Source: Pseudanabaena sp. UWO311 (lineage in GTDB: Bacteria; Cyanobacteriota; Cyanobacteriia; Pseudanabaenales; Pseudanabaenaceae). From it: a stretch of DNA of 32,000 nt. The notes below the pieces were generated by a model. The model was not told the origin of the DNA. It did no database searches and saw only the letters and a list, made by a program, of their open reading frames with translations. This document shows positions 254 to 16,152 of the stretch, piece by piece. How positions within the stretch are numbered: position 1 is the stretch's first letter; every line of letters starts with the position of its first letter. Location: NCBI RefSeq assembly GCF_006937785.1, contig NZ_SJEE01000026.1:1-32000 (forward strand). The letters run 5' to 3'. The position numbers and the translations under genes are program-made.

Positions 254-2089
254 ATGATAAATAACTGGCTGGACACGATCTGGCTGATTCCCTGCTATTC
301 CCTGATAGGAGCAATGCTATCGATCATCTGGTTTCCCAGCATCACGCGCAAAACGGGACCCAGACCAGCAGGCTACATCAATATTTTCATGACTTTCTGC
401 TCATTAGTTCATGCGATCGTCGCTTTGACTGTAGCTTGGGGACAGCCAGCACATTTATTATCTTTTCCTTGGCTTACGGTCGGAGGACTAGACTTTACAA
501 TCGACCTACAGATTTCAGAAATCACTATTGGCGCAATCATCTTGGTCACTGGGATTAACCTGCTTGCCGAGATTTATGCGGTCGGTTACATGGAAATGGA
601 TTGGGGCTGGGGTCGCTTTTATGCGCTACTGGCACTTTTTGAAGCAGGGATGTGTTCCTTGGTTCTATGTGATTCCCTATTTTTCAGCTATGTCATTCTC
701 GAAATTTTGACCCTTGGAACTTATCTCCTTGTCGGTATTTGGTACAACCAATCACTGGTAGTAACTGGGGCGAGAGATGCTTTTTTGACTAAGCGAGTAG
801 GAGATTTATTCTTACTAGTAGGCGTAGTTGGTTTACTGCCCTTAGCTGGCTCTTGGAATTTTACGGAGCTAGCCGAATGGGCTCAGACTACAGATGTTAA
901 CCCAACGACGATAACCTTAGTCACCCTAGCCCTGATGGTTGGTCCGATGGGAAAATGCGCCCAATTCCCCTTACATCTTTGGCTAGATGAGGCGATGGAG
1001 GGGCCTTTACCAAGTACTGTGCTGCGGAATTCAGTAGTTGTCGCTACAGGTGCTTGGGTATTGATCAAACTTCAGCCTTTGTTTGCATTGTCACCTTTTA
1101 CTCAACAAGCAATTATTGCCGTTGGTTCAGCAACTGCATTAGGTGCAACGCTAATTGCGATTGGGCAGATTGACGTGAAACGCTCTCTGTCATATCTAAC
1201 CAGTGCCTTTATGGGACTAATCTTTATCTCCGTTGGTACTGGCAATACCCATAGTGCCTATATTTTGATTTTGTCCCATGCTTTAGCGATCTCGCTCTTG
1301 CTAATGTCAGTAGGCAGCATTATTTCCAACAACATTAGTCAAGATCTAACTTTGATGGGTGGGCTATGGAATCGCCGCCCGATTTCAGGAATCTGCTTTT
1401 TAGTGGGTGCGATCGGATTGATTGGATTGCCTCCATTGGGTGGATTCTGGGCTATGGTTGATTTGCTTAACTCTCTCTGGCAAGACAACCCTGCTTTAGC
1501 AGAATTGCTGCTATTAATTAATGGCTTGATTGCCTTCAGTCTTATGCGCGTATTTGGTCTGATTTGGGGAGGTAAACCCAAGCAGATGACGGAACGGTCC
1601 GTAGAGCCCCTATGGTTGATTGTCATACCAATGACCATAATGGCAGGTGTAGTATTGCATGTTCCTCAAATGCTAATCGCTTGGGGCGTTATTCCTAACT
1701 GGACGCAGATGCTTAGTCCTGATGCCCTGCTTCTAATCGGCTCAAGTGTTGCAGGGCTGGCTACAGGTGCATATCTCTATCTCAATCAGCAAGTTCCTAA
1801 GCCTGTAACTTTACCTTGGTTAGGCTTACAGAATTTCTTTGCCAATGATTTCTACACCCCAAAACTCTACAAGGTCACAATTGTGGGACTAGTAGATGGT
1901 GTATCGAAAGGGATGTACTGGTTCGATCGCTTTTTTGTCGATGGAGTAGGCAATTTCTTTGGATTAGCGACTCTGTTTAGTGGTCAAAATCTCCGCTACA
2001 GCACCTTTGGTCAGTTACAGCTCTATACACTGACGATTATGGTCGGCATTGGCGTTCTACTTTTATTACTGTTCAATTGGACTCTCTAA
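254..2089 (+). CDS. ndhF3: NAD(P)H-quinone oxidoreductase subunit F, CO2-uptake paralogue (NdhF3, NDH-1MS)
   Basis: 611-aa polytopic ORF with NuoL/NdhF antiporter-type motifs (KCAQFPLHLWLDEAMEGPLPSTV). It is the first gene in the conserved order ndhF3-ndhD3-cupA-cupS. Confidence 0.9.
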   Translation: MINNWLDTIWLIPCYSLIGAMLSIIWFPSITRKTGPRPAGYINIFMTFCSLVHAIVALTVAWGQPAHLLSFPWLTVGGLDFTIDLQISEITIGAIILVTGINLLAEIYAVGYMEMDWGWGRFYALLALFEAGMCSLVLCDSLFFSYVILEILTLGTYLLVGIWYNQSLVVTGARDAFLTKRVGDLFLLVGVVGLLPLAGSWNFTELAEWAQTTDVNPTTITLVTLALMVGPMGKCAQFPLHLWLDEAMEGPLPSTVLRNSVVVATGAWVLIKLQPLFALSPFTQQAIIAVGSATALGATLIAIGQIDVKRSLSYLTSAFMGLIFISVGTGNTHSAYILILSHALAISLLLMSVGSIISNNISQDLTLMGGLWNRRPISGICFLVGAIGLIGLPPLGGFWAMVDLLNSLWQDNPALAELLLLINGLIAFSLMRVFGLIWGGKPKQMTERSVEPLWLIVIPMTIMAGVVLHVPQMLIAWGVIPNWTQMLSPDALLLIGSSVAGLATGAYLYLNQQVPKPVTLPWLGLQNFFANDFYTPKLYKVTIVGLVDGVSKGMYWFDRFFVDGVGNFFGLATLFSGQNLRYSTFGQLQLYTLTIMVGIGVLLLLLFNWTL

Positions 2090-2095
2090 GCAAAG

Positions 2096-2227
2096 CCATT
2101 TAAGAATTTATTTAGATCCCCCCCAGCCCCCCTTAAAAAGGGGGGAGAATCAATTCTTCCCCCTTTTTAAGGGGGATTGAGGGAGATCTCTTAGACCTTT
2201 TAACCTTAGAAAGTAATTCTTAAATGG
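2096..2227. repeat. MITE-like nested palindromic element in the ndhF3-ndhD3 spacer
   Basis: 13-bp terminal inverted repeats: ccatttaagaatt (2096-2108) and aattcttaaatgg (2215-2227). They enclose two G/C-clamped hairpins, ccccccttaaaaagggggg (2127-2145) and ccccctttttaaggggg (2159-2175), which are near reverse complements of each other. The end sequences recur at 25595-25626. Confidence 0.7.
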
Positions 2228-2263
2228 TTTCTAAATCTGAATCTCTACTTTAGGAATAACACT

Positions 2264-3787
2264 ATGCTCAGCGCTCTAATTTGGTTGCCTGTGATCGGGG
2301 CATTAGCGATCGCCTTTCTCCCGCAAAGTCAAGTTAAAAAAGGATCGGCAATTGTTGCAACGGCGATCTTAATTCTTGATTTCATCCTTTTGCGACAATT
2401 CGATATCAAGATTTCGGGTTTCCAATTAACAGAAAATTTGCCTTGGCTAGAAAATCTTGGCTTAAACTACAGCCTTGGCGTTGATGGGCTATCTTTACCA
2501 CTAGTGGTTCTAAATGGGTTGCTCACTTGGTTGATCGTTTGTTTTTGCGATCGGCAGATCAAAGAACGCAATACACTCTTTCATGTATTAATGCTCTTGA
2601 TTCATGCTGGTGTAAGTGGCGCAATTCTCTCCACCAATACGCTGCTATTTGTGCTGTTTTATGAAATAGAGTTAATTCCTCTCTATTTAGTCATCGCAGT
2701 TTGGGGTGGCGGACAACGTAGTTACGCGGCGATGAAGTTCTTGATCTTCACTGCTATTTCAGGGATTCTCGTTTTAGTCGGATTCCTAGCTTTAGGATGG
2801 CTATCGGCAAATCCTACGCCAGTTTTTGACTATGCGACATTACAAACTCTTTCGTTACCGATTGAGATTCAAGTCACTCTCCTAGTGGTATTGCTACTAG
2901 GCTTTACGATTAAAGCTCCTTTCGTACCATTCCACACATGGCTACCCGATGCCTATGTAGAATCGACAACCCCAACGGTAATGATGCTCGGAGGCATTGT
3001 TGCTAAATTAGGAACCTACGGTTTGTTTCGCTTTTGTGTCGGTTTATTCCCCGATGCTTGGGCTTTACTATCACCTTGGATTGCAGTTTGGGCAGGCTTA
3101 GGAATTCTCTATGGCGCAATGGTTGCGATCGCGCAAAAGGACATCAAACGCATGGTTGCCTATAGCTCCATCGGTCACATGAGCTACATTCTCCTTGCTG
3201 CTGCTGCTGCCACACCTCTAAGCATGGTCGGCGGGATCATTCAAATGGTAAGTCATGGCTTAGTTCTATCACTGCTGTTCTATTTAGTCGGCGTGATTGA
3301 AGAAAAAGTTGGTACAAGAGATCTCGATGTTCTGAATGGCTTACTTAATCCCATACGCGGTTTGCCTTCTACCAGTGCATTGCTAATCTTAGGTGGTATG
3401 GCAAGCGCGGGTATTCCTGGGCTGATTGGATTCATCTCAGAGTTTCTGATTTTCCAAGGTAGTTTTAGCAAGTTCCCTATCCCCACGATCTTATCGATGA
3501 TCGGTACAGGGCTTACAGCTGTTTATTTCGTAATTCTGCTCAATCGTACTTGCTTTGGTAAATTGGATAATCACACCGCTTACTACCCTAAAGTTTCAGG
3601 TATTGAGCAGTTGCCAGCACTGATTTTGACTGCATTAATTGTGATTTTAGGAGTGCAACCATCTTGGTTAGTGCGTTGGAGTGAAGTAAGTGCCGTTCAG
3701 ATCATCGCTCGTGTTCCTGACACAGCGATTGTAGCTAGTACAAGTCTCATCAATGAAGACAGCAACTCTTTAACTGATCGCAATTAG
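2264..3787 (+). CDS. ndhD3: NAD(P)H-quinone oxidoreductase subunit D, CO2-uptake paralogue (NdhD3)
   Basis: 507-aa polytopic NuoM/NdhD-like ORF (FVPFHTWLPDAYVESTTPTVMMLGG) located between ndhF3 and cupA. Confidence 0.9.
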   Translation: MLSALIWLPVIGALAIAFLPQSQVKKGSAIVATAILILDFILLRQFDIKISGFQLTENLPWLENLGLNYSLGVDGLSLPLVVLNGLLTWLIVCFCDRQIKERNTLFHVLMLLIHAGVSGAILSTNTLLFVLFYEIELIPLYLVIAVWGGGQRSYAAMKFLIFTAISGILVLVGFLALGWLSANPTPVFDYATLQTLSLPIEIQVTLLVVLLLGFTIKAPFVPFHTWLPDAYVESTTPTVMMLGGIVAKLGTYGLFRFCVGLFPDAWALLSPWIAVWAGLGILYGAMVAIAQKDIKRMVAYSSIGHMSYILLAAAAATPLSMVGGIIQMVSHGLVLSLLFYLVGVIEEKVGTRDLDVLNGLLNPIRGLPSTSALLILGGMASAGIPGLIGFISEFLIFQGSFSKFPIPTILSMIGTGLTAVYFVILLNRTCFGKLDNHTAYYPKVSGIEQLPALILTALIVILGVQPSWLVRWSEVSAVQIIARVPDTAIVASTSLINEDSNSLTDRN

Positions 3788-3875
3788 TGCGATTTATGAA
3801 GATGTCGATTTATTAGCAGCAAGTTCAGAAGCAATTTTAGAATCAACCATTTAGATATATAAAAGGTAATCAACG

Positions 3876-5192
3876 ATGACAGCTACTTTAACGGAACCCA
3901 CAACCAAGCTACCGCCTTCCACCCATCCCTACGCAGAAGTCATTCATCGCCTCGAAGCAGGTGGCTCAATGCTGCCAGATACGCCCGAAAATCTCATGCA
4001 GATTATCGGACTTTACAAAGCATATGCTGTACCGATGGACTTCTATTGGCGGGATTTACTATACATAGCTGAACAAGTATTTTTAGAGCCAATTCCTGCC
4101 TTTAAATATTTTCTTCCCCAAGAATATTTAGATTTGCCTAATCACTATGCTGGCGATACTGCTGATTTGCGGTTTTGGCGAGGCGAAGCGACGGCTCATC
4201 CAGAATTATTAGAATTCATGGATAAGGGAGAACTCAAAGCCAAAATTCCCAAGATTTTTCATCATCTCTATCACGATCGCATCAATATGGAGTTTGCGGA
4301 AGAATGTATGCGCGCAATGCTCTGGCATCGAGGCATGGGCGGCGAGTTAGAGCCTTACATGGATTCTGAAGAATATAAGCAGAATGCCGATCGCGCCATT
4401 CGGGCTTTCTTTAAAAATAATCCAGTGATGTTGGGATTATACAAACTTTTTCCTGATATGTTCATGGAGCAATGTCGCCAATCAACCATGACTTCGGTGC
4501 TTGGGCTATTTTGGGAAATCATGGCTCCCGTGTTCTTTGAGATGTCGGATATTTACGATGAAGGTGGCTTTAAGGGCGTGCCTGATGCGATGGATTTCTT
4601 GGTAAATGGCATCTTTGCGATCGCGGGTCGTCCCATTTATCACCGCGTGAAGATTGGCGATGAATGGATTGATATTGTCCCCAAATCCAAGGGATTTACT
4701 TGGCTCTATGAGGCAGCCTTCCCCTATGTCGAGGCAGTGTTTTACCGCACTTCCCCATTCCGTGGTACGAAGTCTTACAATGCTCAAGCTCACGAAGTGC
4801 CTAACGATCAGAATGATTTTCACTTTGGAATTTTGTACGCGGATAAGTTCCCTGTGGGCTCCGCAGGTATTCCGCCCACATTGCTGCATCAAGACATGTA
4901 CCACTTCTTGCCGCAATATCTGATTGACTATTACAAACAACATTGTCGCGGTGAAGATGACATGCTAATTCAGTTAGCTGTCAGTTTTCAGCGATCGATG
5001 TACAACGTGACTTCGGCAGTAATTCAGGCGGGAAGAGCGGCGTTGCTTTATCCCTTAGATGATCCTAATCCTAAACATCTTTTGGCAAATCGTCATTATT
5101 TTGAAGGACAACTGAATCGATTCTGTAATCCTAAATATGGCATGGATAAAGCTGCCAGAATAGGGATGGTTCAGGATCAAAATTATCGGTAG
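3876..5192 (+). CDS. cupA: CO2 hydration protein CupA/ChpY of NDH-1MS
   Basis: 438-aa soluble ORF. The N-terminal HRLEAGGSMLPDTPENLMQIIGLYKAY region is typical of CupA/ChpY, and the gene follows ndhD3. Confidence 0.9.
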   Translation: MTATLTEPTTKLPPSTHPYAEVIHRLEAGGSMLPDTPENLMQIIGLYKAYAVPMDFYWRDLLYIAEQVFLEPIPAFKYFLPQEYLDLPNHYAGDTADLRFWRGEATAHPELLEFMDKGELKAKIPKIFHHLYHDRINMEFAEECMRAMLWHRGMGGELEPYMDSEEYKQNADRAIRAFFKNNPVMLGLYKLFPDMFMEQCRQSTMTSVLGLFWEIMAPVFFEMSDIYDEGGFKGVPDAMDFLVNGIFAIAGRPIYHRVKIGDEWIDIVPKSKGFTWLYEAAFPYVEAVFYRTSPFRGTKSYNAQAHEVPNDQNDFHFGILYADKFPVGSAGIPPTLLHQDMYHFLPQYLIDYYKQHCRGEDDMLIQLAVSFQRSMYNVTSAVIQAGRAALLYPLDDPNPKHLLANRHYFEGQLNRFCNPKYGMDKAARIGMVQDQNYR

Positions 5193-5914: not shown

Positions 5915-8731
5915 ATGTTTGGACAGCTATCTGAACGGCGAATGCATTTGATTCGCTGGATTTTAACGATCGCATGGTTACTGATCATCGCGTCATTATT
6001 TTACGATCCTTGGACTCCTCAATTTACAGTCTCCAATCATCCTTGGAGTCCATTAAGGTTAACTGATAGTTGTATCTCGGTACAAGGTAACTGCTTAGTA
6101 GAACAGCCCTATGCCCTAGGTACAACTATATTCTGGGGTGCGGTTGTCCCTGCGGCGATTTTCATTTTGTTGGTGTTTGGGCATGAGTTATGGCGGCGGA
6201 TTTGTCCGCTCTCATTTTTATCACAAATCCCTCGCGCCTTGGGTTGGCAGCGTCAATTTAAACGCGAAAATGCCAAAACTGGCAAGGTTCGCTATGAGTT
6301 AGCCAAAGTAAAGCCCGACTCTTGGCTAGGAAAAAACTATCCCTATGTGCAGTTTGGCTGGCTATTCGCAGGGCTATGCGGTCGGATTTTATTTTTTAAT
6401 GCCGATCGCTTGGTGCTGGCTCTATGGATATTGACGACGATTGCTGCTGCGATCGCAGTTGGTTATCTTTATGGCGGTAAGTCTTGGTGCAATTACTTCT
6501 GTCCGATGGCTCCCGTACAGCGCGTTTACAGTGAACCAGGGGGACTATTTAGCAGCAGTGCTCACACTAGCGATCAGTTGATTACGCAATCGATGTGTCG
6601 AACTGTAATGCCCGATGGCAAAGAGCAAAGTGCCTGTGTGGCTTGTCAAAATCCTTGCTTGGATATCGACTCTGAGCGGGTGTATTGGGATGGCTTGAGC
6701 AAACCTGAAGAATCATTTCTGAGATATGGCTATGTCGGTTTAGTGACTGGCTATTTTGTCTATTACTATCTCTATGCAGGTAATTGGGACTATTATTTCT
6801 CTGGTGCATGGGCAAGGCAAACTGACCAATTGGCAACCTTGTTTAGTGCAGGGTTCTATCTATTTGGACAGGCGGTTAATATTCCTAAATTAATTGCTGT
6901 ACCTTTAACGCTGGGCATTTTTACCGCAGTTGGTTATTTCTTAGGTCGCTGGATTGAAAAGAGGATCAGGATTTACAGCGGCGATCGCCATCTCAAGCTA
7001 TCTAGGGAAGTCATTCGTCATCGTATTTTTACTATTTGTACATTTACAATTTTCAACTTCTTCTTTATTTTTGGCGGTCGTCCGTTAGTCGCTTTGATGC
7101 CACTTTGGGGCCAATACATCTATGATTTGGGATTAGTTCTGCTCAGTACGCTTTGGGTGTATAAAACTTGGCAGCGTAGCCCCGACCTCTATTCACGGGA
7201 GAATTTAGCCAGTCGCTTCCGTAAGCAATTAGAGAAGTTGCAACTTAATGTTTCCCAGTTTTTAGAAGGGCGATCGCTCAGCGATTTGAATACCCATGAA
7301 GTTTATATCTTGGCAAAGGTTTTGCCTAGCTTCACTAGAGAAAAGCGCCACACTGCCTATAAAGGAGTGGTGCGTGAAGCCTTGGAAGAAGGATATGTCG
7401 ATTCTTCCAGCAGTTTAGAGGTCTTGCAACAATTACGTCAGGAACTTGGCATTACTGATGATGAACACCGTGAAGTACTAGAAGAACTAGGCATTGAAGA
7501 TCCACAGTTGCTAAACCCTGATCATAAACGTAGTTTAGAAAATCAAATTCGCTTGACGGGCTATCGCAAATCAATGGAGCGATTGATGCTATTGCAAAAG
7601 CAACAGTTTGATAACTCTTCCGATACTTTACTTGAGCAGAACTCAGCTCAAGTACGAGCCTTACGCCGCCAATATGCGATTAATCCGCAGGAAGAAGCTT
7701 GGATTTTGGATGGCATTTCTCCAGAATCGGGAAACCTGCGTAGAGCCGAGTTTTTAGTCGCCCAGTTACCATCTTTGATTTTCTGTTATCGAGCTTTACA
7801 TCAGCCGATCATTCAAGAACATCAGACTGTACTGAGACTTTTGTGGGATAGCATTACTCACAAAAAGGAATTAATTGTGCGGACTATTTTAGGAACTCTG
7901 GAGACTTTCCCAAATGATGCCGATGCGATCGCAGTTGCTCAACAGTTAGGACAATTAGCACCATCAGTTTTGGTGGAAGCCTTAGAATCTGAGAGCTGGA
8001 GCGATCGCTTATCTCCAGAAATCCTGCAATGTTTACATCCATCGCAGGGACAAGCAACTGTCTGTCAGCTCGATTATTCTATTGAGGAGATTTTGCGATC
8101 GCTAGAGCCTTTACTGGATGATCAAAATCCTTTGATGCAAGCTGCTTGTTTGTATATCACCGCCCAACTGAATCTTGAGCAAAGTAAGGCGATCGCTCGT
8201 AATTACAGTCTGCAAACTTCGATCTTAGTGCAGGAGACCGCCAAGATCGTACTCTCACTGTCTGATAGTTCCCCACCGCTCACAGCATTTCCGATGTTAG
8301 AGAAAGTAGCGCATCTCTTTAATAGCGATTTCTTCCATCGGATGCATGGTGAAACGTTGGTAGGGCTTGCCGATCGCGCTGAGGTGAGAGCATTTACGAC
8401 GAATGAGGTGATTACGGAAGCAGGTGATACTTGTCGTGAGTTGTTGCTGGTAATCACTGGCTCAGCGAAGATTAATTTCTATTCTCAGGGTGAGGTAGTG
8501 CGTGTTGAGCATCTGAAGTCTGGACAAACCCTAGATGAGCTAGAGGTTTTAGCCCATAGTGATTCTCAAAATACAATCATTGCAGATAGTGAAATCACGC
8601 GAATTTTGGCGGTTCCTGTTGATGCCTTTGATGCTTTTCTCGATCGCGATCGCGATTTTGCCCGTCGTGTTCTCGAACTAGAAAGCCGTCAATTGCAAAA
8701 ATTTATGCGATCGTTCCAGACTACAAGATAA
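5915..8731 (+). CDS. Multidomain membrane protein: NapH/polyferredoxin-like Cys-motif membrane domain, helical HEAT-like region, C-terminal cyclic-nucleotide-binding (CAP_ED) domain
   Basis: The N-terminal TM segments carry RRICPLSFLSQ, WCNYFCPMAPVQ and ACVACQNPCLDID cysteine motifs. The C-terminus has a cNMP-binding beta-roll pattern (FTTNEVITEAGDTCRELLLVITGSAKI...SGQTLDELEVL). Confidence 0.6.
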   Translation: MFGQLSERRMHLIRWILTIAWLLIIASLFYDPWTPQFTVSNHPWSPLRLTDSCISVQGNCLVEQPYALGTTIFWGAVVPAAIFILLVFGHELWRRICPLSFLSQIPRALGWQRQFKRENAKTGKVRYELAKVKPDSWLGKNYPYVQFGWLFAGLCGRILFFNADRLVLALWILTTIAAAIAVGYLYGGKSWCNYFCPMAPVQRVYSEPGGLFSSSAHTSDQLITQSMCRTVMPDGKEQSACVACQNPCLDIDSERVYWDGLSKPEESFLRYGYVGLVTGYFVYYYLYAGNWDYYFSGAWARQTDQLATLFSAGFYLFGQAVNIPKLIAVPLTLGIFTAVGYFLGRWIEKRIRIYSGDRHLKLSREVIRHRIFTICTFTIFNFFFIFGGRPLVALMPLWGQYIYDLGLVLLSTLWVYKTWQRSPDLYSRENLASRFRKQLEKLQLNVSQFLEGRSLSDLNTHEVYILAKVLPSFTREKRHTAYKGVVREALEEGYVDSSSSLEVLQQLRQELGITDDEHREVLEELGIEDPQLLNPDHKRSLENQIRLTGYRKSMERLMLLQKQQFDNSSDTLLEQNSAQVRALRRQYAINPQEEAWILDGISPESGNLRRAEFLVAQLPSLIFCYRALHQPIIQEHQTVLRLLWDSITHKKELIVRTILGTLETFPNDADAIAVAQQLGQLAPSVLVEALESESWSDRLSPEILQCLHPSQGQATVCQLDYSIEEILRSLEPLLDDQNPLMQAACLYITAQLNLEQSKAIARNYSLQTSILVQETAKIVLSLSDSSPPLTAFPMLEKVAHLFNSDFFHRMHGETLVGLADRAEVRAFTTNEVITEAGDTCRELLLVITGSAKINFYSQGEVVRVEHLKSGQTLDELEVLAHSDSQNTIIADSEITRILAVPVDAFDAFLDRDRDFARRVLELESRQLQKFMRSFQTTR

Positions 8732-8783
8732 AGCAGAAATGTTTTATGGCGCGCCTTTACCGCGCCATAAAACATTTCTGCTT
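8731..8783 (+). terminator. Long perfect hairpin terminator
   Basis: 23-bp perfect stem aagcagaaatgttttatggcgcg / cgcgccataaaacatttctgctt with loop cctttac. It starts in the stop codon of the 5915-8731 gene. Confidence 0.75.
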
Positions 8784-8872
8784 TAAGGCAATTAAGTTTA
8801 GCGATCGCTCAATTCCTAGAGATGAAGTTTGTTGATATAAAATAGAAATATTGGCAAATCTGTGATCGAAGT

Positions 8873-9397
8873 ATGGATGCAATTACGACTATTTTTGTGG
8901 CAGCGATCAAAATTATTGTTGATTCTGGAGTATTGAGTAGAGTTAGTGATGGAGCAACGACTAAGATTGGTGAAAATATTACTGATGGGGTTGGTAATAT
9001 TTCACAGAGATTATGGGCAATGCTAAAGCGGAAATCTCCTAACACTGATACGGTAAAGAAACTTGGTAAAGGGCAAGAGATTGATTACCAGCAGGCAGTG
9101 ATTGATGTCGAGGCGATCGCGGATGATCCTGATGTGGTGAAATTATTGGATGAGGTGCGATCGCTTTTGGAAAGTAATCAAGAGCTAGCAGCTAGGGTTG
9201 AAGAGTTGGCGGCACAGGCTATAATTGCGCCTAAAATTGTACAAGTGATGGCTAGTGATATTGAGGGCGTAAACCTTCGAGCAAAATCAATGAAGCAAAC
9301 AGCGCCATCTGGCAGTAGCTCAGTTGAGCAGACGATGCTAAAGAATGTCAAAGTAACGGATGATATCGATTTGGGTGATTTAACTCAGGAGGCTTAG
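8873..9397 (+). CDS. Hypothetical 174-aa protein: hydrophobic N-terminal helix, acidic coiled-coil middle, C-terminal pseudo-repeat motif. First gene of the NLR-like module.
   Basis: ORF begins MDAITTIFVAAIKIIVDSGVL. The middle region reads VVKLLDEVRSLLESNQELAARVEELAAQ, and the tail reads NVKVTDDIDLGDLTQEA. Its stop is 3 nt from the next start codon. Confidence 0.6.
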   Translation: MDAITTIFVAAIKIIVDSGVLSRVSDGATTKIGENITDGVGNISQRLWAMLKRKSPNTDTVKKLGKGQEIDYQQAVIDVEAIADDPDVVKLLDEVRSLLESNQELAARVEELAAQAIIAPKIVQVMASDIEGVNLRAKSMKQTAPSGSSSVEQTMLKNVKVTDDIDLGDLTQEA

Positions 9398-9400
9398 GCG

Positions 9401-9832
9401 ATGGAAGAGTTGTTAGAACTAAAGGGATTTTTGCTCAGTGGCAATATCTCTGATGCTTTGCTGTTGGTGGAGGAGATGACAGAAATGAGCAAAGATGACA
9501 AATTAAATAAAATTTCCAGTTTTGCCAAGATTCTCCTATTGCATTTAATCAAGCGCCAAGCGGAAGGACGAACAACGAGATCGTGGGATGCTTCTATTGA
9601 AAATGCTGTTTATGAAATTCAGAAAACAAATCGTCGCCGTAAAGCAGGAGGGAGCTATCTGACTAAGGAAGAATTGCGGGAAGCAATCAGCGATGCTTAT
9701 CGGGTGGCGATATCAGGTGCGGCGGCTGAGGCTTTTGGTGGTTGTTATACAGTCATACAACTAGCGGCGATGGTCGATTGCGAGGCTATTATTAATCAGG
9801 CGATCGCTTTAATTTTGGGTGAGGCAACATGA
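9401..9832 (+). CDS. DUF29-like helical protein
   Basis: LLLHLIKRQAEGRTTRSWDASIENAVYEIQ resembles the DUF29 core (LL.HLLKWQYQP..RS.SW..TI). It shares an ATGA start/stop overlap with the NB-ARC gene. Confidence 0.5.
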   Translation: MEELLELKGFLLSGNISDALLLVEEMTEMSKDDKLNKISSFAKILLLHLIKRQAEGRTTRSWDASIENAVYEIQKTNRRRKAGGSYLTKEELREAISDAYRVAISGAAAEAFGGCYTVIQLAAMVDCEAIINQAIALILGEAT

Positions 9833-12159
9833 CGACAGATCCGAAAAATCAACAGTCGGCTTTACAAGGTAATGATGTGGCGCGCGACCTCACAATTGGT
9901 AACTTCGCACAGACAATCAACTACAACCAAATTATTCAAGAGGCAAAACTGACGGGGGGCAGCCTGATCAATTTGCCGCAGACTAATGTGACTTTTTTTG
10001 CGGGACGGGATGATGACCTGAAAAAAGTACATGAACTTTTACAGAAAAATCAGAGGGTGGCGGCAGTAGCTTTTGTGAAAGGGATGGGGGGTGTGGGGAA
10101 GTCAGAACTTGCCCTTCAATATTCGCTACGGCATTTTTTGACGGACTATAGCGGTGGAATCTGTTGGTTACGGGCAAATGAGGGGACTTTGCCGACCCAA
10201 TTACAGGATTTTGTACAGATACAGCTTGGGGAAATGATGCCCGATGGGTTAGATAGTGGCGAAAAGTTGGCGGGACATTGCTGGCGGCGGCTTTCGGATC
10301 GCTTGGAGGGGCAGATGTTGGTGGTGTTAGATGATGTGAAAAGTTCTGACGACGTGAATCCATTTTTGCCACCTCAGAATGGAAAGTTTTGGGTGTTGGC
10401 GACGACGCGGTTGGTATTGGGGAAATGGGATCAGCAATACACGTTAGATGTGTTGGTGTTGGCGGCGGCGGTGGATTTACTAAAGTCGTTTTTACCTGAA
10501 GCCGATCCGCGTCGGGGGAATGATGCGGAAATCGAGAGGCTTTGTGAGTGGTTGGGGCGGTTGCCTTTAGCGATCGAGTTGGTGGGGCGGTATTTGGCTT
10601 TGCCGAATCAGTTAGATACTGGTATTTCTGAGATCTTGCAACGCTTGCAAGGAGAATGTATGGTGCAGCTTTCGCAAATTACTGATGAAGAAAGGAAGTT
10701 ATTACCCAAAAATCTAAATGTGGCGGCTTCATTTTTCTTGAGTTGGCAAGAGTTGTCACCCTTGGCTCAACGTTTGGCTTGTATGCTGGGTTTGTTTGCC
10801 TTAGCGCCGATTCCTTGGGAACTAGCTGAAAATGCAGCACTCTTCAAGTTAGAAAATATACAAAGCAGCCGCCTGACTAAATTTATCAATGGTTTAGAAA
10901 ATATACAAAGCAGCCGCCTGACTAAATTTATCAATAAAACCTTGAAAAAAAATAATCCAAAAATAACAAAAGAAGACTTAAAAAAGGCTCGTGGTGAATT
11001 ATTGAATATAAATTTATTGCAAGTAATCTTTCTAGAGGATGTCCATTTTTATCATTTACATCAATTACTACGAGAGTATTTTAAATTTCAATACCAAAAA
11101 CATTCTGAATGGTCAAATATCAAGGATAAATTGATTTGCAGTTTAATTAAGTTTTGCAATAATTTATCTAATAATGAAAACTCATCAAACATTGCTACCA
11201 GTTATTTGAAACCACATTTAGGAATTCTTAAAGACAGAGAGAAAATATTTGATATCTGTAAATCTGATAATGAATTTATAGAAGATGTATTACGTGGATT
11301 TGGTAGCCTTAGAGATTACTATGAGAAGATAGGCTCATATTCTATTGCAGAGGATTGGGGAATTGAAAGCTTAGAGATCAGAAAAAAGTTTTATAGTGAG
11401 CAGCATTCTGATATTGCTCAAGATTGTAGCAAGCTTGCACATATCTACAATATGAATCAAAAATATAATGACGCAGTTGATTATTTTAAGCAAGCTATTC
11501 AAAAATACAAAAAGGCAGGTGAAATGCGTGAAGAGATAAAGAATGTGATCAAGGCTACAAGACTTAACTTTAAGTTAGACATATATTATGAGTTTGATTT
11601 GGAAAAGCACGAAAAAGAAAGTGAGAATTTATCTAATGATAAGCATGATTATGATCTGCGTTATGAAATCAAAGAATTAAGACAAGAAGAAGACAAACAA
11701 GCAAAACAAAAAGAAGAAAAGAGATTAAACTCTGTAAAAGAAGAAATTAAGATAGCTGTTGTTGGTTATCGTAATACTGGCAAAACAAGTTTTATCCGAA
11801 CATTAGTTAGAGACAAAGTTGGAATTGTAGAAGATAAAGCAGGAAGTACTATAGAGCCAGAAGAACACGAATGCTTGACTAATATAAAGCTAGTCGATTG
11901 TCCAGGGTTTATCAGTATTGATCAATACCAATCTTACAGAAGAGAAAAAGAGGAGAAATTACTCTCTAAAAGAGAAATATTAAGCAAAAACAAATGGACA
12001 GAAGAAACAATTGATCTATGCGAAAAAGCAATTAACAAAATAAAAATATCTGACATAGTTATTTATGTTGTCAGTTTAGAAAATCTTCACGATGAGGTAA
12101 CACAAAGAGAGATCGAGGAAATTAAAAATACAAACAAAAAAAATTATAGCTATTATTAA
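9829..12159 (+). CDS. STAND/NLR-like NTPase: NB-ARC module, winged-helix, TPR-like region, then the first half of a TRAFAC-type GTPase domain. The reading frame is interrupted at an A8 run.
   Basis: NB-ARC motifs: GMGGVGKSELA (10081-), LVVLDDV (10318-), WVLATTR, GRLPLAIELVG (about 10554-). GTPase motifs: G1 VGYRNTGKTS (11764-), G2-like GSTIEP, G3 DCPG (11896-11907). Confidence 0.85.
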   Translation: MTTDPKNQQSALQGNDVARDLTIGNFAQTINYNQIIQEAKLTGGSLINLPQTNVTFFAGRDDDLKKVHELLQKNQRVAAVAFVKGMGGVGKSELALQYSLRHFLTDYSGGICWLRANEGTLPTQLQDFVQIQLGEMMPDGLDSGEKLAGHCWRRLSDRLEGQMLVVLDDVKSSDDVNPFLPPQNGKFWVLATTRLVLGKWDQQYTLDVLVLAAAVDLLKSFLPEADPRRGNDAEIERLCEWLGRLPLAIELVGRYLALPNQLDTGISEILQRLQGECMVQLSQITDEERKLLPKNLNVAASFFLSWQELSPLAQRLACMLGLFALAPIPWELAENAALFKLENIQSSRLTKFINGLENIQSSRLTKFINKTLKKNNPKITKEDLKKARGELLNINLLQVIFLEDVHFYHLHQLLREYFKFQYQKHSEWSNIKDKLICSLIKFCNNLSNNENSSNIATSYLKPHLGILKDREKIFDICKSDNEFIEDVLRGFGSLRDYYEKIGSYSIAEDWGIESLEIRKKFYSEQHSDIAQDCSKLAHIYNMNQKYNDAVDYFKQAIQKYKKAGEMREEIKNVIKATRLNFKLDIYYEFDLEKHEKESENLSNDKHDYDLRYEIKELRQEEDKQAKQKEEKRLNSVKEEIKIAVVGYRNTGKTSFIRTLVRDKVGIVEDKAGSTIEPEEHECLTNIKLVDCPGFISIDQYQSYRREKEEKLLSKREILSKNKWTEETIDLCEKAINKIKISDIVIYVVSLENLHDEVTQREIEEIKNTNKKNYSYY
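10859..10945 (+). repeat. In-frame tandem duplication (45-nt period) at a compositional breakpoint
   Basis: A perfect 42-nt copy, ttagaaaatatacaaagcagccgcctgactaaatttatcaat, occurs at 10859-10900 and again at 10904-10945. It encodes LENIQSSRLTKFIN twice. Confidence 0.95.
12136..12143 (+). other. A8 homopolymer at the frame junction of the STAND gene (candidate slippage or indel site)
   Basis: The upstream frame stops at 12157-12159. The +1 frame is open from 12101 to 13036, and the two open frames overlap exactly across this A run. Confidence 0.8.
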
Positions 12160-13036
12160 TCAGTCTAATTCTATATCTTCTGACAAGAAAAATAGAATAC
12201 CCAAGTGGAAGCAATTCTTTAAAGATCAAGATGTCAAATATTATCTCGATTTTGATTGTTTTTGGGATAAACCATCAAAAATAGATTCACTATATTCATT
12301 TGTTTCAGAGAGCTTATCTGGAGATTTTAAAAAGAATCAGTCTTTTGCTTCTGCGCTGGAAATTTATGAAGACAAAAAATTAAAAAAATTAAAAAAAATT
12401 TGTACCGAATTTTCTAGTTGTTTAATTGATTGTAGAAAAATTAAGTTTCAAGTGGCAAATACTGAACAAGAAAGAGAGAACGCTCAAGAAGACTGCTCTA
12501 AAATGGCTTTGTCAATAATAAGAAAGTTTATCGAAGAAACACAAAAAGAATTTGAAATTGCAGTTAACATTAAACACTCAGACATTCAAGAAGTAATCTC
12601 AGCGAATGATTTTAACATCACGCATATTTCTAATGAAGCCGCATCTAAGACTGCAATATTTTCAGGACTTGGCGCTGTAATTGGCAGTGCAGTTCCATTG
12701 GTAGGAACAGCAATAGGAGCAGTAACAGGGTCATTGATAGGAGCAGGGATAGGTTATTTAACAACAAAAGACACAAAAATAGAGGTTAATTTGAGTTCAG
12801 CTAACTTAAACTGTATTTCTAGTTTTTGCTTGGCTTATTTATCCGCTTGTTTATTTTGTGGTTATGCAAAGTATGGTTATAAAATTGAAGATGAATACAG
12901 GAGACAACTAGATTGGCATAAAATAAAGACTTTGCTTAAAAACACAACTAAATATTGCAGTGAAAAAAATAATTTGATTGAATTAAGTGAAGAAGAAATG
13001 GTTACATGGTGTAATGACTTTCTTGTAAAACTTTAA
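12143..13036 (+). CDS. +1-frame continuation of the STAND gene: rest of the GTPase domain (degenerate G4), helical region, glycine-zipper/hydrophobic segment
   Basis: 117 open codons (12101-12451) with no ATG, GTG or TTG lie upstream of the track's GTG start. KKIIAIINQSN falls at the position expected for a G4 (NKxD) motif. The GxxxG-rich segment FSGLGAVIGSAVPLVGTAIGAVTGSLIGAGIGY spans 12653-12760. Confidence 0.7.
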   Translation: MIAIINQSNSISSDKKNRIPKWKQFFKDQDVKYYLDFDCFWDKPSKIDSLYSFVSESLSGDFKKNQSFASALEIYEDKKLKKLKKICTEFSSCLIDCRKIKFQVANTEQERENAQEDCSKMALSIIRKFIEETQKEFEIAVNIKHSDIQEVISANDFNITHISNEAASKTAIFSGLGAVIGSAVPLVGTAIGAVTGSLIGAGIGYLTTKDTKIEVNLSSANLNCISSFCLAYLSACLFCGYAKYGYKIEDEYRRQLDWHKIKTLLKNTTKYCSEKNNLIELSEEEMVTWCNDFLVKL

Positions 13037-13090
13037 AATAATCAAAATAAAATATTTTATTTTCAATCAAACTTTAGTAGCAAGCAAAAA

Positions 13091-13369
13091 ACTTACTCAT
13101 CGCAAGGGAAGTAAAACGAAGCCGAACCTCTCTTTATGCGATCGCTCTCTATCAGGGAACGCCAACTAGGAACAGACCATCCCAATGTCGCCGCCAGTCT
13201 ATTCAACTTAGCCGCCCTCTATCAAAATAAAAATACCCAACGTCATCCCGAAGCCCTGCAATCCATCCAACGCACCATCCAAATTTACGAACGAAAACTT
13301 GGCACTGAGCATCCCAATACTCAAGCAGCACTCAGTTGGCTTCAGGCGATCCGTGAGGCATCTCTATGA
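13091..13369 (+). pseudogene. Remnant 3' end of a KLC-type TPR (TPR_10/12-like) gene with an internal TAA
   Basis: [42 protein letters not shown]...LGTEHPNTQAALSWLQAIREASL. There is an in-frame TAA at 13112-13114 where TPR repeats normally have Tyr. GC content returns to the host level here. Confidence 0.7.
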
Positions 13370-14137
13370 TTGCAACTGACGCACCTGCTCAACTTTTAAG
13401 CCAGTAACCTGAGCAACTTGCTCAATATCCATACCAGACTTCAGCAAATTTAGAGCGATTTCTTGGCGACCCTTTAGCAAGCCTTTTCTTAGTCCTCTTT
13501 GCAAACCCTTTAATTCGCCTTCTCGCAAAGCATCTTTATATACTCTGGTATTTTTTATATCACTGAGTGTAAACATCGCTTCAATCTCCTCGCGGCTTAA
13601 GTTTTTAAATTTGGACACAAGCACAGCTTCGACTAATTCCATAATATCAGGATTTAAGTTTTGCTGCTTCAAACCCTGCACAATTTTCGGCGCATCACTT
13701 TCTGGGCTTGTAATTAACTGAACTATAGCGATCGCCACTGACTCAGACTCACCCAACTCATCGAGATAAATTGGTATTAAACGTTGATTATCAATCAACT
13801 CTTGCTGAAAACTTGATAATTTGGTGGGAGCAACTTGGCGATCGGCAAATATTGCAACTGCCTTCCAATCATTTTCTGGCTCATATTGACTGAGATACAA
13901 TAAAATCTCGCTGAGAAATTCCCAATAGAAATTAGCTTTTTTCTGAAACTGTACCTCTACAAAGTAAATCGGCTTGTCTATCCTATCAGGAGCAAAGATG
14001 CCATCAAATCGAAAAGCCTTCTCTTTCACTTCCACTGAAATAAACTCATATCCCTCTTCAAACGGTTGATTGAGAAGTTCAAACAGCAGCGTATTAAAAG
14101 TTTGAAAGAGTTTATAAAAAATCGTGTCAGTTCGCAT
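13364..14137 (-). CDS. Rpn-family recombination-promoting nuclease / putative transposase (PD-(D/E)XK; cyanobacterial DUF2887/DUF4351 type)
   Basis: MRTDTIFYKLFQTF N-terminus, FDGIFAP...PIYFVEVQFQK nuclease core, and a basic C-terminal tail with GLKVEQVRQL. Confidence 0.75.
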   Translation of the reverse strand: MRTDTIFYKLFQTFNTLLFELLNQPFEEGYEFISVEVKEKAFRFDGIFAPDRIDKPIYFVEVQFQKKANFYWEFLSEILLYLSQYEPENDWKAVAIFADRQVAPTKLSSFQQELIDNQRLIPIYLDELGESESVAIAIVQLITSPESDAPKIVQGLKQQNLNPDIMELVEAVLVSKFKNLSREEIEAMFTLSDIKNTRVYKDALREGELKGLQRGLRKGLLKGRQEIALNLLKSGMDIEQVAQVTGLKVEQVRQLQS

Positions 14138-14720: not shown

Positions 14721-14832
14721 GACATAGGATTAGGCTAAAAATATATGTATCAAGTCACACTAAATTACGCCAAAGCAAACCTTGATGAACTATGCGATCG
14801 GGCAGGTCAAGAACCAGAAGGAGTAGCGATCG
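14631..14832 (+). repeat. Direct repeat copy 1 (TPR tail end + spacer + phd 5' end)
   Basis: Shares these blocks with 15217-15398: gttggttgat.tt.tct, acataggatta.gctaaaaata, caaagcaaac.ttgatgaactatgcgat, tagcgatcg. Confidence 0.65.
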
Positions 14833-14996
14833 TTCGTGAAAATCGTAGTTATATTCTGATTACTCAAGAAGAATGGGAATCTCTAATTGAAACTGCGGAA
14901 TTAATGCAACTACCAAACCTGCTCAACCAAGTTGCATCGGCACGCCAAGAATATCAAGCAGGAGAAGCACTCTCTATGGAGCAAGTCTTTGGATGA
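14745..14996 (+). CDS. Phd/YefM-family antitoxin
   Basis: 83 aa. YAKANLDELCDRA...VAIVRENRSYILITQEEWESLIETAELM is a typical Phd/YefM fold signature. Confidence 0.8.
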   Translation: MYQVTLNYAKANLDELCDRAGQEPEGVAIVRENRSYILITQEEWESLIETAELMQLPNLLNQVASARQEYQAGEALSMEQVFG

Positions 14997-15705: not shown

Positions 15706-16152
15706 ATGACGCGCACCTATATTAGCGTTCAGTTAAGGCGTTTAGTCATTGAACGTGCTGACAGCATCTGTGAATATTGTTTAATTTCTTCAGCAGATAG
15801 ATCTTCTGGTTGCCAAGTTGACCATATCATCAGTGTTAAGCATGGCGGAGATACTACACCAGACAATCTTTGTTATGCTTGCACATTCTGTAATCTACAA
15901 AAAGGAACAGATTTAGGATCGATTAATTGGCGAAATGGCGAACTCGTCAGATTCTTTAATCCTCGCAGAGATTTTTGGGGAGAACACTTTCAACTGGATG
16001 GAGCCATGATTCAGTCAGTTACAGATATTGGCGAAGTAACAGCACGTATCCTTGATTTCAATAATGAAGAAAGAGTCTTAGAAAGACAGTTATTAATAAA
16101 AGTTGATAGATATCCTTTAGACGTAGCAAAAAAGAGAATCTGCAAGTTGTAA
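15706..16152 (+). CDS. HNH endonuclease family protein
   Basis: CEYCLIS...CQVDHIISVKHGGDTTPDNLCYACTFCNLQKG contains the Cys4 zinc site and the H-N-H catalytic pattern. Confidence 0.85.
   Translation: MTRTYISVQLRRLVIERADSICEYCLISSADRSSGCQVDHIISVKHGGDTTPDNLCYACTFCNLQKGTDLGSINWRNGELVRFFNPRRDFWGEHFQLDGAMIQSVTDIGEVTARILDFNNEERVLERQLLIKVDRYPLDVAKKRICKL

Follow-up and report, generated by a model that had tools for sequence, protein, structure and literature searches.

Bell-domain effectors and the NOD-like receptors (NLRs) encoded beside them were described in bacteria by Dyrka et al. 2020 (bioRxiv 10.1101/2020.01.06.895854), where Bell domains and ten bacterial amyloid signaling sequence (BASS) families are defined by a motif that the tail of the effector shares with the head of the receptor. 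Repeats of BASS4 are frequent on the Bell side, and of the BASS types it is the one nearest to HET-s (PMC8086366). In Table S2 of Dyrka et al. 2020, the bass_04 row for Cuspidothrix issatschenkoi gives the pair PPJ64015.1 and PPJ64013.1, with the motifs VEQTMLKNVKVTGDIDLGDLSQE and QPQINQSILNNVNVGGNLTTGDI in two collinear genes located 433 bp apart. The same table contains two Bell proteins from Pseudanabaena, BBC24761.1 from strain ABRG5-3 (bass_03) and OYQ63525.1 from strain SR411 (bass_05). In the part of the experimental literature drawn on here, BASS1 and BASS3 formed fibrils and showed prion behavior, and the Bab/Agp system of E. coli, which uses BASS11, is a case of amyloid-controlled abortive infection (bioRxiv 10.1101/2024.11.07.622273). 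Here, we compare with these systems a locus from Pseudanabaena sp. UWO311, located in a stretch of 32,000 nucleotides (contig NZ_SJEE01000026.1 of assembly GCF_006937785.1, positions 1 to 32,000), the whole of which we refer to as the window. Our analysis suggests, with a probability of roughly 0.78, that this locus is a three-gene Bell-DUF29-NLR cassette belonging to the BASS4 amyloid-signaling type of filamentous cyanobacteria. The features of the cassette are as follows.

8873-9397, + strand: gene 1, encoding a Bell-domain effector protein of 174 aa (open reading frame [ORF] and sequence identity)
8873-9217, + strand: Bell-type helical N-domain, aa 1-115 (AlphaFold2 [AF2] model and homology to listed Bell proteins)
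9236-9298, + strand: R1, a putative and doubtful first pseudo-repeat, aa 122-142, IVQVMASDIEGVNLRAKSMKQ
9320-9391, + strand: Bell-side BASS4 motif, aa 150-173, SVEQTMLKNVKVTDDIDLGDLTQE (profile from the BASS4 Bell-side rows of Table S2)
9401-9832, + strand: DUF29 gene, between gene 1 and the NLR gene (Pfam PF01724, E = 6e-8)
9829-12159, + strand: NLR-like protein, 776 aa as annotated, with a probable BASS4 N-terminus, NB-ARC, a short tetratricopeptide repeat (TPR) region and a truncated GTPase (Pfam)
9853-9912, + strand: probable NLR-side BASS4 motif, aa 9-28, QSALQGNDVARDLTIGNFAQ (receptor-side and combined profiles)

The Bell, DUF29 and NLR genes are collinear on the same strand, with 431 bp between the Bell and NLR genes, and translational coupling is present on both sides of DUF29, i.e., the DUF29 gene starts 3 nt past the gene 1 stop codon and its own stop codon overlaps the start of the NLR gene (ATGA). 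The gene 1 product (TYQ24804.1 / WP_142656510.1) is labeled "hypothetical protein" in the databases and ends with ...NVKVTDDIDLGDLTQEA, encoded at 9344-9394 (...VEQTMLKNVKVTDDIDLGDLTQEA in its longer form). An original prediction, made from the letters of the window, had proposed an effector-NLR pair of the Bell/BASS type at this site; its coordinates and sequences were exact for gene 1, for VQVMASDIEGVNLRAKSMKQ within gene 1 (9239-9298), for the NB-ARC ORF and for LQGNDVARDLTIGNFAQTINYNQIIQ at the N-terminus of the NLR (9862-9939), and the proposed logic holds for family membership, given the listed Bell paralogues, the BASS4 tail and the joint switching of motif types set out below.

The pair in the window resembles the Cuspidothrix BASS4 pair in that the Bell motifs are almost the same (VEQTMLKNVKVTGDIDLGDLSQE in Cuspidothrix, VEQTMLKNVKVTDDIDLGDLTQE in the window), the NLR motifs belong to one type (...NV.VGGNLT.GDI in Cuspidothrix, ...NDVARDLTIGNFAQ in the window), and both pairs are collinear with an NB-ARC partner, across a gap that is the size of one DUF29 gene in each case (433 bp there, 431 bp here). 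It differs from that pair in that the NLR motif in the window is degenerate (G18A, I26F, T27A), and in that a frameshifted low-GC GTPase/glycine-zipper module has taken the place of the TPR sensor. With the Bell/BASS5 pair of strain SR411 (OYQ63525.1/OYQ63523.1), the locus shares a Bell domain that is 63% identical and, in the receptor, an NB-ARC scaffold that is 73% identical; with the Bell/BASS3 pair of strain ABRG5-3 (BBC24761.1/BBC24758.1), it shares the Bell family (61% identity). The genus and the operon logic are common to the locus and both of these pairs. In these two pairs, however, the motif on both partners is BASS5 or BASS3, whereas in the window it is BASS4, and NLRs of the SR411 type, unlike the one studied here, carry two tandem N-terminal motifs.

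More distant parallels exist as well. For example, the HET-S/NWD2 system of Podospora anserina (HeLo and HRAM) also consists of a small effector, with an N-terminal membrane-targeting helical domain and a templatable C-terminal motif, and an adjacent NLR with one N-terminal copy of the motif, but we found no sequence relationship or detectable fold in common (Foldseek), a two-rung pseudo-repeat is not demonstrable by sequence in gene 1, and the context in the window is a bacterial operon with an additional DUF29 gene. In Bab/Agp (BASS11, Babybell), the same logic has been shown in experiments: the small helical effector and the sensor next to it have an amyloid motif in common, and an N-terminal helix of the 'MEPIS' type is required for killing, comparable to the MEP-type starts present in homologues of gene 1; the effector domain of Bab/Agp is, however, shorter (~80 aa), its motif belongs to BASS11, and the Bell model from the window gave no match to such a solved structure (Foldseek, PDB). 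A search of Table S2 for the window string DLGDLTQ gave no occurrence, so the locus is a new member rather than a re-discovery, i.e., it would add to the BASS4 Bell/NLR amyloid-signaling class a Pseudanabaena case that had not been listed before, with a pair that is recognizable from sequence alone. The locus leaves the picture of how Bell/NLR systems work unchanged; the parts that deserve further attention are the linkage to DUF29, the dual-head receptors found at related loci and the GTPase-bearing chimera in this strain.

The Bell effector and its BASS4 tail

Gene 1 encodes a small protein of the executioner type and has the layout of a Bell-domain protein, with an M-D hydrophobic helix, a helical domain of ~115 aa and a flexible tail. 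The protein begins MDAITTIFVAAIKIIV (M-D), and the hydrophobic N-terminus that the original prediction had noted in this effector-like protein corresponds to a helix in the AF2 model at aa 3-17 (MDAITTIFVAAIKIIVD), following the acidic second residue. A hydrophobic helix combined with an acidic position 2 or 3 is the signature of the Bell domain (Dyrka et al. 2020); homologues of gene 1 begin MEPVS (MEPVSLLVGLL) or MEP(L/I/V)T, and the 'MEPIS' N-terminal motif matters for killing in Bab/Agp (bioRxiv 10.1101/2024.11.07.622273). An AF2 model built with 54 sequences, including remote relatives, has a pLDDT of 73 (an alignment with 27 close homologues gave a pLDDT of 51 and was unusable) and predicts helices at aa 3-17, 34-54, 59-65, 72-80, 86-101 and 103-116, with a pLDDT of 86-93 over aa 40-110, followed by a flexible tail with short strands and a pLDDT of 50-67. 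At 174 aa and with six predicted helices, the gene 1 product is thus a short protein of the expected kind (~120-170 aa with a helical N-domain of ~100 aa).

Homology leads to the same assignment, in that paralogues of gene 1 are listed Bell proteins: exact accession look-up showed BBC24761.1 to be one of our gene 1 homologues (P0104) and OYQ63525.1 to be the effector of locus L020, and their identities to the N-domain of gene 1 are the 61% and 63% given above. No family was found for gene 1 in scans of Pfam, NCBIfam and PADLOC, libraries that carry no Bell or BASS models. A profile search with the N-domain identified 80 representative clusters at E<=1e-3 among 1.8 billion proteins, and these are mostly proteins of 110-170 aa with a 'MEP...' start and BASS3-, BASS5- or other BASS-like tails; with the full-family alignment as the profile, the matches listed were close Pseudanabaena relatives only.

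Our search for the motif used BASS4 profiles rebuilt from the seven 'cya_02' rows of Table S2 (Dyrka et al. 2020), with which 512 six-frame segments of the window were scanned. The Bell-side profile matches VEQTMLKNVKVTDDIDLGDLTQ, at the tail of gene 1, with E = 4e-12 and 40.9 bits (1.8e-8 without the Cuspidothrix row), and the second-best segment in the window has E > 1. The tail of gene 1 therefore carries a C-terminal BASS4 signature; its length and composition also fit the BASS description, and by this profile its motif is the published BASS4 motif. Homologues of gene 1, almost all of which are from Pseudanabaena, have a conserved N-domain of ~100-115 aa in common and end in any of four unrelated tails, which we counted among 136 cluster representatives as follows.

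Tail class A: ...VEQTMLKNVKVTGDIDLGDLTQEA, 42 representatives
Tail class B: ...NKQTGFDNVKIKGKATIKLNQQIN, 26 representatives (+1 variant)
Tail class C: ...NPNKLAEKIGIVVQSGGKADIQTFNM, 39 representatives
Tail class D: ...GKQINVNQSGNNNTQNNTFN, 26 representatives

The tail 24-mer of class A, to which gene 1 belongs, is identical in 32 of the 42 representatives, while their N-domains share just 70-78% identity with that of the window, i.e., the tail is more conserved than the globular domain. The window copy departs from this 24-mer at G163D (codon 9359-9361), a change unique among the class A tails (1 of 42). The original prediction had also described two pseudo-repeats in gene 1, the upstream one (R1) being a looser copy of the C-terminal motif (R2); this did not hold up statistically, since the similarity of R1 to R2 is not above chance (z = 0.1, p = 0.44), and the BASS4 profile scores R1 at ~0-1 bit. 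R1 is nevertheless kept in tail classes A and B, and the AF2 model has an equal strand pattern at aa 122-136 (R1) and aa 151-166 (R2), with a P/S/G-rich linker between them, in a tail of low confidence.

The receptor head and its exchange together with the effector tail

In the NLR, Pfam identifies NB-ARC at aa 61-279 (E = 5e-10), TPR at aa 493-575 and MMR_HSR1 at aa 641-770, and matches no family in the first 60 residues ahead of NB-ARC. A single probable BASS4 motif is the sole N-terminal extension of this protein, with NB-ARC following from aa 61, in agreement with the proposal of an NLR with one repeat and no other N-terminal domain. This N-terminus (aa 9-25) ranks first of the 512 segments with the receptor-side profile, at a weak E = 0.37, and second, after gene 1, with the combined profile, at a weak E = 0.13; scored alone, it has E = 0.047 and 0.009. 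Among the orthologous NLRs, the heads at loci L001, L005, L008 and L014 reach 21-26 bits, with E from 1e-7 to 5e-6, and in the first three the motif occupies the position it has in the window. Further properties expected of a partner are present in the NLR, as it is collinear with gene 1, separated from it by a gap within 5 kb and contains NB-ARC; its native TPR array has been largely replaced. The match between the C-terminus of gene 1 and the N-terminus of the NLR, which the original prediction had put forward, stands on the published profiles and the orthologues, and is marginal when the window pair is taken alone (p ~0.017). We judge it to be solid because of the E = 4e-12 of the Bell tail, the profile rank of the head and the scores of the orthologous heads.

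The window head reads VARDLTIGNFAQ where the orthologues read VGRDLTIGNITQ, and differs from the heads of L001, L005 and L008 at G18A (codon 9880-9882), I26F and T27A. Together with G163D in the Bell protein, G18A in the NLR means that both partners lost a glycine at the aligned position of the two-residue 'GG' turn. This paired loss, a single case found in this strain alone, may reflect drift of both partners together or compensation.

We examined 26 genome loci (L001-L026) and one metagenome locus (L027) related to the cassette, where the downstream gene encodes an NB-ARC protein with an N-terminus that fits the type of the Bell tail. For example, class C tails pair with heads of the form HEPNKLADKVGIVA..GS.VNIGTFN (z = 9-14), class D tails with EVNINQDGTKNTQNNTFN (z = 9) and class A tails with NQQSALQGNDVGRDLTIGNITQ or VNQTGFQDVSVGGNLTANLDQ (z = 2-5), and BASS5 and BASS3 tail/head pairs as a whole reach z = 9-14 in the shuffle test. 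At 17 related loci, the tail and the N-terminus of the receptor change jointly between BASS3, BASS5 and BASS4-like on one NB-ARC scaffold. Among receptors with 67-86% identity to the NLR of the window, the exchange is confined to the first 30-55 residues and occurs at a fixed junction (..N-Y-N/T-Q-I-I-Q-E-A-K), and the exchanged heads are BASS4, BASS3, or BASS4-like plus BASS5, with a Bell tail of matching type encoded next to them. The summed score of the cis pairs is 777, compared with 534 +/- 51 when re-paired, and 0 of 20,000 permutations reach it, a figure that is inflated by kinship among the loci.

Several NLRs contain a tandem pair of different N-terminal motifs (L013 2781-3210, L020 7895-8330 and L021 7935-8360, and also L019 and L023), where a BASS4-like NKQTGLENVN.GGDADINISQEI is followed by a BASS5 HEPNKLADKVGIVA... 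motif. The Bell tail fits the first of these motifs in L021 and the second in the others, so one receptor may address two effectors. A single NB-ARC scaffold is thus found with BASS3, BASS4 or BASS5 heads, in some receptors with two in tandem, and this natural swap series would be convenient for probing the specificity of amyloid templating. Decay is frequent in this Bell/NLR family: the Bell gene is split in L011 (7001-7631) and L014 (6977-7458), just 110 aa of the NLR are left in L007 (7870-8202), and in L004 no NLR is detectable 3' of Bell-DUF29 (7900-10000).

The mechanism we propose is drawn from HET-S/NWD2, from the prion assays with BASS1 and BASS3, and from Bab/Agp, and by analogy with these systems we infer amyloid templating for this BASS4 pair. 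The Bell domain would hold its N-terminal hydrophobic 'M-D/E' helix tucked in, and the NLR, on sensing a trigger, would oligomerize and gather its N-terminal motifs into a cross-beta nucleus. By templating, this nucleus would impose its own fold on the Bell tail, and the conversion would free helix 1 of the Bell domain to attack the membrane and kill the cell, either as abortive defense or as death triggered by non-self.

DUF29 and the slot between the partners

The DUF29 gene had been regarded in the original prediction as an insertion that departs from the known pattern. Our comparison reversed this, as DUF29 is a conserved part of the cassette: it is located directly after the Bell gene in all 12 of the 12 loci with a class A (BASS4) tail, and directly adjoins the Bell gene in 20 of the 26 genome loci. 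Even the distant metagenome locus L027 has the order Bell-DUF29-DUF29-NLR, with DUF29 at 674-1111 and 1157-1582. Copies of DUF29, in which the N-terminal 60 aa are nearly invariant, also occur ~50 bp upstream and/or directly downstream of the Bell gene (e.g., L005 6506-6919 and 7475-7903). At other loci, the slot contains genes of the toxin-antitoxin type, either an MNT (NTP_transf_2) and HepT pair (L015 7531-8239, L016 7474-8140, L022 7450-8116 and L026 7375-8056) or a gene for a HicB-like antitoxin (L017 3612-3899, L018 8511-8798 and L023 7868-8179). A relationship of DUF29 to HEPN/HepT, which would unify the genes in the slot, was ruled out (hhalign probability 0.8%), and a phmmer search of DUF29 against PDB sequences gave no match. 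In the literature consulted, we found a single paper with a mention of DUF29, a protein-interaction screen in Synechocystis, and did not find the linkage to the Bell/NLR slot described.

DUF29 could serve to keep the Bell tail from being templated too early, in the manner of a brake or chaperone; alternatively, the repeated DUF29 copies could serve as a recombination handle for the cassette-wise swapping of Bell tails and NLR heads. The constant presence of DUF29 between the partners, with genes of the toxin-antitoxin type in its place elsewhere, offers a testable lead, either to a further level of control or to cassette shuffling.

The chimeric receptor and competing explanations

The NLR gene of UWO311 is a chimera, with the following features at and downstream of its junction.

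10840-13090, + strand: low-GC replacement segment, 2.2 kb (composition, breakpoint, Pfam and PADLOC)
10849-10935, + strand: perfect 42-nt direct duplication with a 45-nt period, at the recombination junction in the NLR gene
12136-12143, + strand: A8 homopolymer with a break in the reading frame; removal of one A joins 9829-12159 with the frame of 12452-13036 to give 1068 aa
12452-13036, + strand: ORF continuing the GTPase module (Gly-zipper_Omp E = 6e-5, Pfam; LeoB E = 1.6e-7, PADLOC), in a frame open from ~12095
13094-13369, + strand: 3' end (last ~90 codons) of the native TPR sensor domain, left stranded (tblastn; TPR_12 E = 5e-12)

Identity to the orthologous NLR of L005 is 97-100% up to nt ~10818 and ~25% beyond, which places the breakpoint at ~10819-10850, and GC content falls from ~0.48 to 0.25-0.35 until ~13090, where it returns to 0.49. 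The replacement segment codes for a divergent NLR middle/linker region, one or two TPRs, a GTPase of the dynamin/MMR_HSR1 type and a glycine-zipper membrane segment, with LeoA/LeoB-like matches in PADLOC, and after removal of the A the MMR_HSR1 match spans the full model (1-112 of 113). Compared with the NLRs of L001, L005 and L008, the TPR remnant has 70-77% identity to their final ~88 aa (tblastn). A protein search for other homologues of the GTPase module returned the window's own protein alone, in a search where low-complexity words may have crowded out candidates, and no match to the low-GC segment was found in the plasmid collection. An architecture that combines NB-ARC, GTPase and glycine zipper in one NLR was not seen at the other loci examined or among database matches. 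The 3' remnant of the NLR is abutted by a gene for a recombination-promoting nuclease/putative transposase of the Rpn family (13364-14137, - strand; DUF2887 E = 1e-60; TIGR01784).

Several observations weigh against reading this locus as a BASS4 cassette. The best local alignment of the window pair, EQTMLKNVKVTDDIDLGDLTQ with QQSALQGNDVARDLTIGNFAQ, has 6 identities in 21 residues, which is low within the range of 6-10 in published cya_02 BASS4 pairs, and is marginal against shuffles (z = 2.9, p ~0.017), and the window head is a poor match to the profile, at 8.5-11 bits compared with 21-26 for its orthologues. When each type is represented just once, 22 of the 720 permutations equal the cis pairing, which is not always the best among BASS4-like loci, a weaker result because BASS4-like variants cross-match each other; the co-variation of the motifs, which the original prediction had named as a check, is thus borne out by type (BASS3, BASS5 and BASS4-like; 0/20,000) but is not clean among the BASS4-like sub-variants. 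In addition, all matches of the Bell model against the PDB with Foldseek have E > 1, and a link to Babybell, HeLo or MLKL was not obtained; Bell models vary widely in topology (Bab/Agp preprint, bioRxiv 10.1101/2024.11.07.622273). We found no experimental test of any BASS4 motif in the literature consulted, the role of DUF29 is a further point on this side, and an NLR that is frameshifted and without its native sensor means that the cassette may not signal in UWO311. Part of this evidence would suit a chance resemblance of the two termini, with the genes being functionally unrelated neighbors, in particular the shuffle p ~0.017 for the window pair alone and the NLR-side profile E of 0.01-0.4; this explanation is effectively refuted by the comparative data, i.e., the E = 4e-12 of the Bell-side profile, the E of 1e-7 to 5e-6 of the orthologous heads, the joint change of tail and head types across loci, and a gene order repeated at at least 12 loci and in the published Cuspidothrix pair. 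We also regard it as quite improbable that the shared motif serves as an ordinary stoichiometric contact between effector and receptor (beta-strand pairing or inhibitory tethering) in place of prion-like templating. The 6/21 residues in common, the short, low-confidence strands of the tail in the AF2 model and the lack of a BASS4 experiment in the literature consulted are compatible with such a contact, and the conserved DUF29 gene in the operon could be a partner, but BASS3 (RHIM-like) tails are in use within this very protein family, and BASS3 and BASS1 gave fibrils and prions in the experimental work cited above. Tails moreover swap as units with NLR heads, as in fungal HET-S/NWD2 pairs, and the composition and length of the motif fit the BASS description, both of which argue for templating.

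A different question is whether a BASS4 cassette by descent still works in this strain, since the chimera, the frameshift and the stranded TPR leave the receptor as either a fresh sensor swap or a wreck. The UWO311 cassette is probably altered or decaying. That it is by now a non-functional relic, its sensor lost to a foreign insertion, its frame broken and its motifs drifting, is possible though doubtful: it would account for the sharp fall in identity to L005 at the breakpoint, the low GC over ~10840-13090, the native TPR tail stranded at 13094-13369, the GTPase domain split by the A8 frameshift, the substitutions unique to the window copy (Bell G163D, in 1 of 42 tails, and NLR G18A/I26F/T27A), the latter of which lower the profile score from 21-26 to 8.5-11 bits, and it has precedents in the decay seen elsewhere (the split Bell genes of L011 and L014 and the truncated NLR of L007). 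Against this, the Bell, DUF29 and NLR ORFs are open (the last to aa 776) with their translational coupling intact, and the junction preserves the frame and connects NLR regions that are homologous, as a productive domain swap would. The frameshift, moreover, falls on a homopolymer, and as the assembly is a draft, it may reflect an error in sequencing, and the Bell position of G163D is variable among published BASS4 tails (Table S2). If a swap did take place, a BASS4-headed NB-ARC protein may have traded its TPR sensor for a membrane-anchored dynamin-like GTPase; the combined proposal that DUF29 is an integral third part of BASS4-type cassettes and that the UWO311 receptor is a productive domain swap seems to us unlikely.

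The surroundings of the cassette were also surveyed. A perfect hairpin with a 20-bp stem is present at 8734-8780, 3 nt past the stop codon of the upstream gene for a cyclic nucleotide (cNMP)-binding membrane protein (5915-8731), and was the sole element above shuffled expectation in a promoter/terminator scan; it probably marks the end of the upstream transcription unit, before the Bell cassette. Just 3' of the cassette are a Phd/YefM antitoxin gene (14745-14996, + strand) and an HNH endonuclease gene (15706-16152, + strand), and the remaining neighborhood consists of housekeeping genes, i.e., ndhF/ndhD/chpX at 254-5192 and genes for phycobilisome proteins, MsrB and a ShlB-type transporter.

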